Source: a virus
Taxonomy: Duplodnaviria; Heunggongvirae; Uroviricota; Caudoviricetes
Reading direction: 5' to 3' (one strand)
DNA length: 36,150 nucleotides
Virus record (IMG/VR): IMGVR_UViG_3300046804_001959
Under the pieces are notes generated by a model. The model was not told the DNA's origin, searched no databases, and saw nothing but the letters and a program-made list of their open reading frames with translations. Both the position numbers and the translations under genes were made by a program. This document shows, piece by piece, positions 16,273 through 19,245 of the stretch; within the stretch, counting starts at the first letter, position 1, and each line of letters opens with the position of its first letter.

Positions 16273-17172
16273 TCAATCTTCTTCAGCAAGTCGCTTGAAG
16301 AAATCAAGATCATCGTCGTCATCATCGACCGTCTTTGAAGGTGCAGGAGCCGCAGCTGCTGCCTTGAACGTAGGTGCCGGAGCACTGTATTCATCTTCAT
16401 CGAGATCGACCCCACGAATCTTGGCAGGTTCTGCCGTGACAGCGAGGACCGTATTCAGACGAGCCTTCAGTTCGTCATAAGACTTGAACTGCTTCGGCGA
16501 TACCAGCTCAGCGAGCGAGTATTCCGAGTTGTAAACGCGTTCAAGCTCAGCGTCATCATCGAACAGTGGTGCGGGAGAGTCGAATTCTGACTTATCGTAG
16601 TTAGGCCAACCTTCGACCTTACGAATCTTGAGCTTGAAGTTAGCGCCCGTCCAAAGATCGAAAGGATTTACTGGCTTCTCGTCCTCAAACGCGGGGTTCA
16701 TGAGGTCGTTAAGCTTGTCGAAGATCTTCTTACCGTACTTGTACAGGAAGACCTTACCTTCGTTGGCAGGGTTACCCGGATCCTTCACAACATAGATGTT
16801 GCTGTAGTATGCCAGGCGACGCTTCTGCTTGCGAGCGATTTCCTTATCAGAGTCAAGACCAGTGTTCCAAAGAACGCTGTTGTACTCCGATACGGGATCG
16901 TTCTGACCGAGAGTCGTCAGCGACTTCTCGATGTACCAAAGTCCGGTCGGACCTTGGAATCCATGGTCCCAAATGCGAGTGAATGGGATATCTTCTCCTG
17001 CAGGTGCAGGAAGGAAACGAATGACGGCGTATCCGTTGCCAGCCTTATCGACTGTCGGCTTCCAATACTTGCCCTCATCGGGATCTGTGTAGGTGGTGTT
17101 CTGCTTAGCGAGTTCTTGCGTGAGCTTCTGGAACGAAGAGGTGGAAGAACGCTTAAGATCAGCAAATGACAT
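16273..17172 (-). CDS. gp32: Single-stranded DNA-binding protein gp32
   Basis: WKPTVDKAGNGYAVIRFLPAP, WYIEKSLTTLG, NEGKVFLYKYGKKIFDK, NPFDLWTGANFKLKIRKVEG.NYDKSEF, and an acidic tail. Confidence 0.97.
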   Translation of the reverse strand: MSFADLKRSSTSSFQKLTQELAKQNTTYTDPDEGKYWKPTVDKAGNGYAVIRFLPAPAGEDIPFTRIWDHGFQGPTGLWYIEKSLTTLGQNDPVSEYNSVLWNTGLDSDKEIARKQKRRLAYYSNIYVVKDPGNPANEGKVFLYKYGKKIFDKLNDLMNPAFEDEKPVNPFDLWTGANFKLKIRKVEGWPNYDKSEFDSPAPLFDDDAELERVYNSEYSLAELVSPKQFKSYDELKARLNTVLAVTAEPAKIRGVDLDEDEYSAPAPTFKAAAAAPAPSKTVDDDDDDLDFFKRLAEED

Positions 17173-17235: not shown

Positions 17236-17243
17236 TATTTATC
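17236..17243 (-). promoter_or_regulatory. Late-promoter-like GATAAATA upstream of gp32
   Basis: One mismatch to TATAAATA, at the gp59/gp32 junction. Confidence 0.5.
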
Positions 17244-17817
17244 ATGAAGTGAAGACGTCCTTGACAATTTTTCTACACTTGAATACATCATAATGAAAGA
17301 ACGGCTTGTACTTCAGCAGCTTCTTGTGGATGCTGGGCCATAGGACTGTATCCTCAATCTTCTTGTTCCAATGACCGAAGAACCCGAAGATATCGTTGAG
17401 GATGATCACCGTCTCGATTGAAATCTCGCGACGAAGATACTGTTTCAACAGATAGGGATGTTGTCCATTCTTTACAATAACATTATCGTTGAAATTTGTA
17501 CATAGTTTTTTCATATCCTGTTCAAAGATATAAGACAGAGACTGTTGTCTCCGCACCCATTCGTTGTACACTTTCTCAGAGTCATCGCTGAACAGATCGC
17601 CTATCCATTTGAGATCGCCGTCTACGAAGTTGGCGACCAGATACTTGAGTGGATCTTTGTGCTTCGACAACTTGTAGAACTGATACTTGTCCTTACGTAC
17701 ATCGAAACTGGCAGGACGAGCGCCTACCTTGCCGTTGTACTTGACGTAGTCGTAGCTGTCTGTAGTGAAGTGATTTTTAAGGGCGAGAAAGGTGGTGTAG
17801 CTCTCGAAAGGAGTCAT
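17242..17817 (-). CDS. gp59: Helicase loader gp59
   Basis: FESYTTFLALKNHFT..YDYVKYNGK..RKDKYQFYKLS..ISIETVIIL..KYKPF; directly upstream of gp32. Confidence 0.92.
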   Translation of the reverse strand: MTPFESYTTFLALKNHFTTDSYDYVKYNGKVGARPASFDVRKDKYQFYKLSKHKDPLKYLVANFVDGDLKWIGDLFSDDSEKVYNEWVRRQQSLSYIFEQDMKKLCTNFNDNVIVKNGQHPYLLKQYLRREISIETVIILNDIFGFFGHWNKKIEDTVLWPSIHKKLLKYKPFFHYDVFKCRKIVKDVFTS

Positions 17818-18059
17818 ACAGGTAGCTTTGCCCTCTTCGGAAGAAAGTTGAGTTCTTCTGCTTCGTCTTGAAGCTTGGCCTTGATTCGAAGGTTGCTACG
17901 AATGATACCTGCAGCAGCCTCGAGTTCGATGTTATTCTTTTCACAGTAGTGGACGACGGCATCCATATAGTCCAGATTGTACCTCGTCACGAGATTCTCG
18001 ATCTCTTTAATAAACTTTTCAGAAGTCAACGCTTTACCAGAAATGACGTCGTCCACCAT
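17814..18059 (-). CDS. gp33: Late transcription co-activator gp33
   Basis: YMDAVVHYCEKNNIELE..KAKLQDEAEELNFLPKRAKLPV. Start set at ATG 18059, with SD GAGGA. Confidence 0.9.
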   Translation of the reverse strand: MVDDVISGKALTSEKFIKEIENLVTRYNLDYMDAVVHYCEKNNIELEAAAGIIRSNLRIKAKLQDEAEELNFLPKRAKLPV

Positions 18060-18063
18060 ATGA

Positions 18064-18630
18064 TCATCCTCTATAAAATATATGTGCTCCGATTTGAGCA
18101 ACACGTGTCAATCCCCAATTAGGGTTTACATAATTAGCATGATAGAATTTTGCGCCTCTCGTAACGTCTCTCGTATTTCCAAGATAGACATCTTCGGCTG
18201 CCTTTCGAGCTGCTGCGAACATTTGCATGTCACGAACGCGCTTCTTGCCTTCACACACCCAAGAAAACTGGCATACGCCTCTTGTTTTCTGATGAACGAC
18301 ACCACAGGCCGTTTTAGGGAACCGCGAGTCTTTGACTCGGTTCATAACCACGTGTGTGACGGCTAACTTACCTTTTTGTGATTGATTGCCTGCTTCGAAG
18401 TATGCATTCTCTGCCAGACATTGGATTTGGCGTTTGTCGTTAGCGCTGAGGTAAACAGGCTTTTTAACGACCACCGGTTTTTCGATTACTTTGACTTCCG
18501 GAACTCGGACGATTACTGGCTTGGGTTCTGGCATCAACATGCTAAACAGTATTACTACCATAGCACCGATTGCAAAACCTTCTGCCCATCTGAGATATGG
18601 GAAGCCTTCGATCTTATCGAAGATTTGCAT
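18064..18630 (-). CDS. SleB/Hydrolase_2-family cell-wall hydrolase with an N-terminal membrane anchor
   Basis: CLAENAYFEA...AVTHVVMNRV..RFPKTACGVVHQ..CQFSW..GAKFYHANYVNPNW..IGAHIFY; hydrophobic segment at about residues 19-33. Confidence 0.92.
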   Translation of the reverse strand: MQIFDKIEGFPYLRWAEGFAIGAMVVILFSMLMPEPKPVIVRVPEVKVIEKPVVVKKPVYLSANDKRQIQCLAENAYFEAGNQSQKGKLAVTHVVMNRVKDSRFPKTACGVVHQKTRGVCQFSWVCEGKKRVRDMQMFAAARKAAEDVYLGNTRDVTRGAKFYHANYVNPNWGLTRVAQIGAHIFYRG

Positions 18631-18639
18631 TTGTACCTC

Positions 18640-18870
18640 TTAGTCGAATGACTTTGGCCAACAGAGACTACTGTGCCGGGCATCTCAGCCCTATAGATGT
18701 CTGTCGCTATGAGAAGATACAAAATAGAATAACGAAGGTATCTTCCATCCATTTCCCTCTTACTGGAAATGCAAAATCATTATGGTTTCGTCTGTGACCT
18801 AACGGTCGCTTTCTAGCCTTCTGACTTGAAGCTTGTTGTAAGAGTCAATGGAGGTGCCAACCTCCGTTGC
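18640..18870 (-). ncRNA. Putative structured leader RNA of the cell-wall hydrolase gene
   Basis: About 245 nt without a credible ORF, lying between a late promoter and the RBS, with seven hand-identified helices including a multi-way junction. Confidence 0.55.
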
Positions 18871-18877
18871 GATGTTT

Positions 18878-18885
18878 TATTTATG
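18878..18885 (-). promoter_or_regulatory. Late promoter CATAAATA
   Basis: One mismatch to TATAAATA; lies upstream of the structured leader. Confidence 0.6.
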
Positions 18886-18939
18886 CTATGGCCAGTTGTT
18901 TTTCTGGCGACTCGTAGCACCAATCTAACACCTTGTAGT

Positions 18940-19245
18940 AAGTTGCCGGATTCTGTTTCGAGGCTCCGGCGGGCCCAATGCTAGCCTCAAGCGGCTAGAG
19001 CAAAGGCAACGTCATTATCGTTTGCATTTACGTTTAGTGGCAACTTTGCCAAGCAATCAGTCTCGAACCGCCTTATTCTGCGTGCATCGATTCCCAGTAA
19101 CACCCCCATCAACTACCTTGAGTTATCGTCTTTCACAACCCGTACGTAGAGGATACTCGTCTTTCCCCTCAAGGTAGATGGTGGAGGTGGGGGGATTCGA
19201 ACCCCCGTCTACTCCGCTTTTATTGTTGATTGTCATCAACTGATA
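18940..19245 (-). ncRNA. ssrA: Circularly permuted (two-piece) tmRNA
   Basis: The acceptor piece ends GGGGG-TTCGAAT-CCCCC-CACCTCC-A-CCA (3' end 19179). After a 71-nt intervening segment, the coding piece starts GGGGGTG at 19107, forming a 7-bp acceptor stem with G3:U70. Tag ORF 19025-18987 reads ANDNDVAFALAA*. Outer ends are approximate. Confidence 0.95.

Follow-up and report, generated by a model that had tools for sequence, protein, structure and literature searches.

The window analysed here, a 36,150-nucleotide (nt) stretch of DNA from an uncultured freshwater T4-like phage (IMG/VR record IMGVR_UViG_3300046804_001959), carries on its minus strand a conserved structured RNA of ~220 nt (18647-18865), placed directly upstream of a gene encoding a SleB-type cell-wall hydrolase. 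The element comprises an aptamer-like complex domain located in fixed orientation in the 5' untranslated region, with seven helices, a pseudoknot and near-invariant junctions and, judged by the comparison of sequences, is a real and widespread RNA family with excellent comparative support. In our preferred reading, to which we assign a probability of roughly 0.6, it represents a cis-acting leader gating the translation of a late endolysin messenger RNA (mRNA).

The members of the family were collected by using (i) the hydrolase protein as bait, which retrieved ~30 close relatives among viral contigs (leader 73-87% identical at the nucleotide level by blastn, protein 55-77% identical); (ii) DNA patterns of the 3' domain, searched in viral contigs; and (iii) DNA patterns of the 5' domain, searched in metagenome contigs (67 loci), so that each half of the RNA served as bait for one of the two sets of loci. 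The motif loci amount to at least 214 in total, including 98 distinct full-length sequences, a count in which some loci correspond to one contig fetched twice and the viral and metagenome collections may overlap. The helices were first derived by eye from the relatives and then tested on a MAFFT alignment of 34 sequences (A2). A covariance model comprising 231 positions and 52 pairs (R1) displays exactly one match per locus, and 76 loci, representing 75 distinct sequences, were aligned with it (alignment A3). Metagenomes containing matching DNA come from freshwater, rivers, lagoons, sediment and wastewater. The mean identity to the window is 80.5% for the leader versus 70.2% for the coding DNA next to it, and in 79 of the 90 distinct relatives the leader is the better conserved of the two.

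An earlier sequence-only reading of the window, which had singled out this region as a multi-stem RNA, held that covariation among homologues upstream of phage SleB genes would support a new motif, and such covariation is strong. Standard pairs occupy 97.6% of the 4329 pair cells of A3, compared with 44-55% in a control in which each 3' partner is slid by 1-3 columns; both-side (compensatory) changes are present in 23 of the 59 pairs (278 cells), and none of 500 shuffles matches any of the observed covariation measures. A MAFFT-only alignment, not fitted to the structure, is 95.6% paired and discloses 19 covarying pairs, and the proposed pairs rank at the top of a blind mutual-information scan. 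The scan revealed no convincing second pseudoknot or further long-range pairs, apart from one additional pair closing P6, which covaries too. G-U pairs are frequent, which assigns the RNA to the strand of the gene. Finally, a 276-nt stretch folds with a minimum free energy of -76.7 kcal/mol versus -61.6 kcal/mol for dinucleotide shuffles (z = -3.3).

The complementary segments on which the sequence-only reading was built are all present at or near the positions it gave, and the comparison of relatives separates those that belong to the family from those that do not. The stems GGAGG/CCTCC (P1), GACC/GGTC (P3, all four pairs of which covary), CATTTCC/GGAAATG (P4), GAAGATAC/GTATCTTC (P5) and CGACAGA/TCTGTTG (P6a) are kept in the relatives. 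The long-range stem is also preserved, its extent being 10 base pairs (bp), 18772-18781 with 18647-18656, instead of the 18772-18780 with 18648-18656 originally drawn. On the other hand, the hairpin TGACT/AGTCA is present in the window without being kept in the relatives, its 5' half corresponding to a conserved junction and the pseudoknot strand, with AGUC/GGCU (P2) found there instead; similarly, the nested CATCT/AGATG is not conserved, the relative L001 (96% identical over the leader) reading AAACT, and the conserved inner hairpin is GGGC/GCCC (P6b). The 7-bp pseudoknot was absent from that first list of stems. Altogether, the near-invariant core comprises P1, the junctions AUUGA, CACCGACGAAAACAC, GAUG and UCAUAGC, P4 and the stem of P5, whereas P3 (with insertions of up to ~70 nt in relatives), the P5 loop and P6 are variable in length, P6b being absent from some clades (Table 1).

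Table 1. Features of the leader and of its neighbourhood in the window, in order of position, with the evidence for each
Feature	Position	Strand	Evidence and remarks
gp32 gene	16273-17172	minus	Pfam
gp59 gene	17242-17817	minus	Pfam
Late-transcription coactivator gp33 gene	17814-18104	minus	Pfam
SleB-type cell-wall hydrolase gene, N-terminal hydrophobic anchor	18064-18630	minus	Pfam Hydrolase_2, PF07486, E 5.6e-26
Shine-Dalgarno AAGAGG(U) and hydrolase start codon	18628-18641	minus	AAGAGG at 18636-18641
Junction UCAUAGC, then P6	18659-18712	minus	A3
P6b GGGC/GCCC, loop UGAGAU	18688-18691 / 18678-18681	minus	4/4 pairs changed on both sides
P6a CGACAGA/UCUGUUG	18700-18706 / 18659-18665	minus	5/6 pairs changed on both sides
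P5 hairpin GAAGAUAC/GUAUCUUC	18738-18745 / 18713-18720	minus	98.8% paired; lower stem nearly invariant
P4 hairpin CAUUUCC/GGAAAUG	18765-18771 / 18750-18756	minus	100% paired; 3 pairs changed on both sides
Closing helix, 10 bp, AAUGAUUUUG/CAAAGUCAUU	18772-18781 / 18647-18656	minus	99.2% paired
A-rich conserved junction, consensus CACCGACGAAAACAC	18782-18795	minus	Unpaired columns nearly invariant
P3 hairpin GACC/GGUC	18804-18807 / 18796-18799	minus	99.7% paired; all 4 outer pairs change on both sides
P2a lower stem GCUU/AAGC, tentative	18829-18832 / 18808-18811	minus	A3
P2 hairpin AGUC/GGCU	18823-18826 / 18815-18818	minus	98.7% paired; changes one-sided only
Pseudoknot CUCUUAC / P4 loop GUAAGAG, 7 bp	18838-18844 / 18757-18763	minus	Paired in 75/75; two pairs covary
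P1 hairpin GGAGG/CCUCC	18861-18865 / 18850-18854	minus	100% paired in 75 sequences; 2 pairs changed on both sides
Putative T4-type late promoter CATAAATA	18878-18885	minus	Consensus match
Circularly permuted tmRNA (upstream of the leader)	18987-19241		Rfam RF04321, 90.8 bits

The 8-nt loop of P4, formed by an A and the GUAAGAG segment (18757-18763), doubles as the 3' strand of the pseudoknot, for which three distinct compensatory variants were found, CCAUUAC/GUAAUGG, CCUUUAC/GUAAAGG and wobble forms. The corresponding geometry, in which the 7-bp helix occupies an 8-nt loop and a single A spans the deep groove, would be plausible. U-G pairs of the closing helix are often replaced by U-A, and one pair there is changed on both sides; P1 reads GGAAGAU/AUCUUCC in L193; P2a is regarded as tentative because it is 86% paired, without covariation; and the 3' arm of P5 is a pyrimidine tract complementary to the Shine-Dalgarno sequence. 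Three further contacts were considered and discarded, including (i) a double T-loop platform of the P2 loop UUAGAU and the P6b loop UGAGAU, both of which are dispensable in some members, the P2 loop of the window being AGAA; (ii) the pairing of the P5 loop, which goes down to 6-8 nt, with the GACGAAAA junction, in an inconsistent register; and (iii) the pairing of GGCUA with UAGCC near the closing helix, which L006, L012 and L014 do not preserve.

Some additional observations concern the same elements. The J3 G of the GACGAAA junction (A3 column 163, ~18789) is changed to A in L012, L018 and L193, which represent two lineages, and in the same three sequences the P6-closing C-G pair is changed to U-A (A3 columns 292 and 351; ~18706 and ~18658), a thin three-sequence hint of either a base triple or a phylogenetic coincidence. 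The loop and 3' arm of P4 (18750-18763), GUAAGAGGGAAAUGGAUG, show a close likeness to the real start region, CUAAGAGGUACAAAUG, and the pseudoknot and P4 enclose this look-alike start, which may serve as a decoy or may be left over from a duplication of the start region. On the plus strand, the segment 18846-18869, comprising the P1 hairpin and CGATGTTTTA, scores as terminator-like, probably incidentally, with no nearby plus-strand gene converging on it.

The position of the RNA relative to the hydrolase gene is fixed. A SleB gene is located directly downstream in 145/145 viral loci and 56/56 metagenome loci with room for it, among the matches listed, the encoded homologues being 43-100% identical; the RNA is found apart from the gene in none of the 201 loci with room (again among the matches listed). 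The hydrolase of the window comprises 188 amino acids, with a Hydrolase_2/SleB domain and a hydrophobic segment at the N-terminus, and is presumed to be a membrane-anchored endolysin. As the sequence-only reading had remarked, the ribosome-binding site AAGAGG follows close behind the closing stem, 5 nt away in the window; the Shine-Dalgarno sequence starts 8-10 nt past the closing helix wherever the search pattern found it. At the other end, the motif NTAAATA is located 7-13 nt upstream of P1 in 74 of the 76 distinct relatives (TATAAATA in 54), and from the T4 late-promoter consensus we infer that CATAAATA, placed upstream of the stems in the sequence-only reading as well, acts as a late promoter in the window. 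Given this spacing and the T4 rule, the late transcript would begin a few nt before P1, at ~18871. On the minus strand, no terminator-like sites were detected from the transfer-messenger RNA (tmRNA) to the end of the hydrolase gene. In addition, contigs of relatives extending over the leader core and the tmRNA occur in four RNA-library runs, each from a different study, a weak hint only, as ends, strand and level cannot be read from such contigs, which might also stem from DNA carry-over.

Besides its own relatives, the leader matches no catalogued RNA family. The region 18631-18925 is without a match to any of the 4227 models of Rfam 15, which include riboswitches, ribozymes, tmRNA, GOLLD/ROOL and manA/wcaG, either at the gathering threshold or at E values up to 10, in agreement with the novelty proposed in the sequence-only reading, and no description of the family was found in Rfam or in the literature searched. 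The neighbouring tmRNA is the sole Rfam match, the loci of relatives likewise displaying tmRNA and transfer RNA (tRNA) only. An extension or part of the two-piece tmRNA was considered and rejected: the tmRNA models end at 18926-18987, the longer ones extending to 18926-18941, and the tmRNA-to-leader distance varies from ~40 to ~1150 nt in relatives, with tRNA genes in between in L024. No DNA similarity was found in cultured phages; among those with SleB endolysins, Moby, BUDD and DSS3_MAL1 show upstream gaps of only 17-129 nt, without an R1 match. Representative bacterial and archaeal genomes gave two pattern matches, both due to chance, R1 reaching 8.4 bits for one of them and giving no score for the other.

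According to the preferred reading, the RNA would constitute the 5' leader of the late mRNA of the membrane-anchored SleB-type endolysin, with transcription from the T4-type late promoter starting a few nt before P1. The comparison shows the fold, its conservation, its strand and its constant place ahead of the gene, whereas control of translation initiation is the proposed role. The ~220 nt fold compactly into P1, P2, P3 and a three-armed domain (P4, P5 and P6) closed by the 10-bp long-range helix, and the pseudoknot, which links the P4 loop to the 5' region, ties both halves together. This native fold pairs three anti-Shine-Dalgarno-like pyrimidine tracts with internal purines, including (i) CCUCC with GGAGG in P1, (ii) CUCUUAC with GUAAGAG in the pseudoknot, and (iii) CUUCU with GGAAG in P5, leaving the real Shine-Dalgarno sequence free. 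With the pseudoknot or P5 unformed, a freed pyrimidine tract could capture the Shine-Dalgarno sequence, and the leader would adopt two states, the native fold being open and the misfold closed. Since the native fold frees the Shine-Dalgarno sequence, its stabiliser would set the timing and the amount of endolysin; candidates for this part are a small ligand, a protein of the phage or of the host, ions, or the kinetics of folding itself.

Folding calculations are consistent with such a switch. The mean unpaired probability of the Shine-Dalgarno sequence is 0.26 in free folding versus 0.59 with the comparative fold imposed, and the proportion of sequences in which it exceeds 0.5 is 16% versus 78%, the imposed fold comprising the comparative helices with the pseudoknot strands blocked, given that free nearest-neighbour folding cannot form the pseudoknot. 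In free folding, the Shine-Dalgarno sequence pairs chiefly with the 3' arm of P5 or with the pseudoknot strand. The imposed fold costs ~9 kcal/mol, which, by our own estimate and not by computation, might roughly be repaid by the 7-bp pseudoknot. In 76/76 sequences, pairing of the CUUCU tract in the 3' arm of P5 with the Shine-Dalgarno core can reach 5 bp or more.

Several points weigh against the gating model. The latter count partly reflects two invariant sequences, because pyrimidine tracts pair with any purine-rich Shine-Dalgarno sequence, and covariation cannot test pairing between two invariant sequences. The Shine-Dalgarno sequence and the start codon lie outside every conserved helix, the sequence of the linker that connects them to the closing helix is not conserved, and no expression platform is visible by covariation in A3. 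The predicted partner of the Shine-Dalgarno sequence differs by clade, being the 3' arm of P5, the pseudoknot strand or a local segment, and the pseudoknot variant CCAUUAC is unable to pair with it, so that capture specifically by the pseudoknot strand fails in that clade; pairing of the 3' strand of the closing helix with the start codon, also tried, performs no better than that of other U-rich segments. The nearest-neighbour folding of ~290 nt without pseudoknot terms is in itself unreliable. Furthermore, the RNA-library contig of one relative continues upstream past the promoter, which fits either read-through transcription or DNA carry-over. Finally, the restriction of the RNA to a single gene type and one phage clade fits a protein-binding or a constitutive element no less than a riboswitch.

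A more specific proposal is a phage-only, new riboswitch class, in which the pseudoknotted aptamer would respond to a second messenger or metabolite of the host, such as a precursor of the cell wall or a signal based on nucleotides or on the energy state, and open the endolysin ribosome-binding site only when this signal indicates that the cell is ready for lysis; we consider it possible but doubtful. Large structured leaders precede bacterial peptidoglycan hydrolase genes in the case of the cyclic di-AMP riboswitch (ydaO-yuaA, RF00379) and of the orphan lysM and NLPC_P60 motifs; those RNAs are bacterial, whereas the leader described here is phage-only and, in a comparison made by Rfam only, shows no match to them. 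In the Methylophilales phage Melnitz and some pelagimyophages, a glutamine riboswitch is located between the two-piece tmRNA and gp33 (PMC9004378). In Melnitz (MZ577097, ~46398-46446; L369:6399-6447), the aptamer matches RF01739 with 52.8 bits (E 8e-10) and immediately follows the permuted tmRNA, with ~250 nt left up to gp33. This marine T4-like phage shares with the window the order nuclease, permuted tmRNA, structured cis-regulatory RNA, gp33, gp59 and gp32, and the presence of a glutamine riboswitch in the syntenic slot therefore makes this slot a known site for metabolite-sensing RNA in the phage group. Nevertheless, the RNA of the window displays a different and larger fold: the Melnitz aptamer comprises 53 nt, the window leader lacks an RF01739 match even at E values up to 10, and the R1 search of Melnitz gave no match. 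In addition, the hydrolase gene of Melnitz is located elsewhere, without a leader, whereas in the window the RNA precedes it.

Other structured RNAs of aquatic T4-like phages found upstream of particular genes are the manA, wcaG and PhotoRC motifs (Weinberg et al. 2010, PMC2864571), described as candidate cis-regulatory RNAs of T4-like cyanophages with unknown ligands (PMC2864571). They resemble the leader in this respect, but differ in gene association and fold and do not match it; a wcaG match was dismissed as noise, being on the opposite strand, inside the tmRNA, and reaching 15.4 bits against a cut-off of 42.

Alternatively, the RNA could be an independent, stable, trans-acting non-coding RNA of the tmRNA/tRNA cluster, transcribed together with the hydrolase gene and then released by processing, with a possible role in translation or as a decoy for host defence systems. 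The locus has RNA genes as neighbours, with a permuted tmRNA upstream in most loci and tRNA genes nearby or just 3' of the hydrolase gene in L024, L028 and L193, and the size, pseudoknot and invariant junctions are like those of stable functional RNAs. The RNA-library contigs holding the leader cores and the tmRNA of relatives point in the same direction, weakly because these runs were found by the same conserved words. However, there is no terminator, the Shine-Dalgarno sequence follows within 8-10 nt in every scored sequence, the RNA never parts from the hydrolase gene in the loci with room, and its spacing to the tmRNA is not fixed, which makes this explanation unlikely. The wide variation in tmRNA distance indicates that the RNA belongs to the hydrolase gene; of the two options left by the sequence-only reading, the cis-regulatory one is favoured over the tmRNA-adjacent non-coding RNA, given the fixed hydrolase linkage. 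A constitutive cis element that senses nothing, be it a 5' structure protecting the late mRNA from ribonucleases of the host or the phage, a fold that maintains an open ribosome-binding site or a standby site, would account for the location of P1, with which the predicted late transcript practically begins, for a Shine-Dalgarno sequence that is open in the comparative fold, and for the lack of covariation support for any alternative structure. We hold it for quite improbable, since neither protection nor standby needs ~220 nt, a pseudoknot, several near-invariant junctions and a conservation above that of coding DNA.

The region might also encode a small protein or a regulatory upstream open reading frame (ORF), either the 65-amino-acid frame at 18555-18752, whose translation the sequence-only reading had considered as a refutation of its RNA, or one of 13-14 codons. 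The loop and 3' arm of P4 read AAGAGGGAAAUGGAUG and resemble a translation start, with AUGGAUG after a Shine-Dalgarno-like AAGAGGG; a 13-14-codon ORF opens from one of the two AUGs in 44/60 relatives and stops at the conserved UAG of UCAUAGC in the window and in the commonest variant, as seen by eye. Nevertheless, the 65-amino-acid ORF is not conserved, being open in 3/60 relatives, the same AUG leading elsewhere to 2-30 codons in frames that shift with loop insertions and deletions, and 44/60 is close to the two-in-three chance expectation when two of three frames hold an AUG. Moreover, the variation is compensatory in helices and not codon-like, and the start-like sequence is buried within the pseudoknot and P4; a coding function is therefore very hard to sustain.

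The closest functional parallels to a gating leader come from phage T4. Translation of the T4 lysozyme gene e is reportedly controlled by mRNA structure, as McPheeters and co-workers are said to have described in 1986: a simple hairpin buries the Shine-Dalgarno sequence in early transcripts, and the late promoter is located inside this hairpin, so that late transcripts escape it. The likeness resides in a T4-type phage in which the structure of a lysis-enzyme mRNA and a late promoter set the timing of translation. A hairpin of the gene e type was nonetheless rejected for the window, where the late promoter is placed upstream of the entire seven-helix, pseudoknotted fold and the Shine-Dalgarno sequence remains outside the conserved helices. 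The mRNA operator of T4 gene 32, on the other hand, comprises a small 5' pseudoknot and, between this and the ribosome-binding site, a tract without structure; its target is gene 32 itself. It resembles the leader in the pseudoknot followed by a non-conserved, single-stranded linker to the Shine-Dalgarno sequence, an analogy which suggests a protein-binding operator as one possible mode of action; it differs in that gene 32 of the window, three genes away from the leader, is preceded by an upstream region of its own. As to the lysis timer or riboswitch-like role put forward in the sequence-only reading, we infer that the leader may fulfil it.

The leader is embedded in a recognisable T4-like neighbourhood, the gp32 of the window being 54-66% identical to cyanomyovirus gp32. 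A gap of ~295 nt without genes separates the tmRNA from the hydrolase gene in the window, and a secreted nuclease gene, identified by Pfam, is also located upstream of the leader. The leader-hydrolase module is placed within the RNA-gene cluster of these phages, flanked by tRNA genes at L024:2472-2673, L193:7816-7905 and L028:5510-5909; in L193, a tRNA gene lies directly 3' of the hydrolase gene and no tmRNA was detected at the locus. Just past the start codon, hydrolase codons 4-9 (18606-18622) contain a perfect 7-bp hairpin, CUUCGAU-AAG-AUCGAAG. Downstream, the hydrolase gene is followed by gp33 in 180/192 related loci, which suggests that the late-promoter leader may head the gp33 gene too; as gp33 is a factor required for late transcription, this arrangement would allow a positive feedback. 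The gp33 ORF is listed from a GTG at 18104, with a 41-nt overlap with the end of the hydrolase gene (18059-18104), and an alternative in-frame ATG is present at ~18059, 5 nt past the hydrolase stop codon.

Phage lysis timing is normally explained by proteins, including holins, antiholins and signal-anchored endolysins, and the known RNA example of lysis control is the simple hairpin of T4. A large knotted RNA in front of an endolysin gene, conserved above the coding sequence and kept across a whole clade of abundant freshwater T4-like phages, points to an undescribed RNA layer of lysis control. If the leader binds a ligand, it would represent a new riboswitch class, in which a virus, as has rarely been seen, uses RNA to read the physiology of its host, and would provide an RNA-based lysis clock in a slot that a glutamine riboswitch occupies in marine relatives; with a protein as its partner, it would amount to a new translational operator. 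Either way, the RNA family is not yet catalogued, its comparative support is very clean, and it could serve as a genetic part for timed expression.

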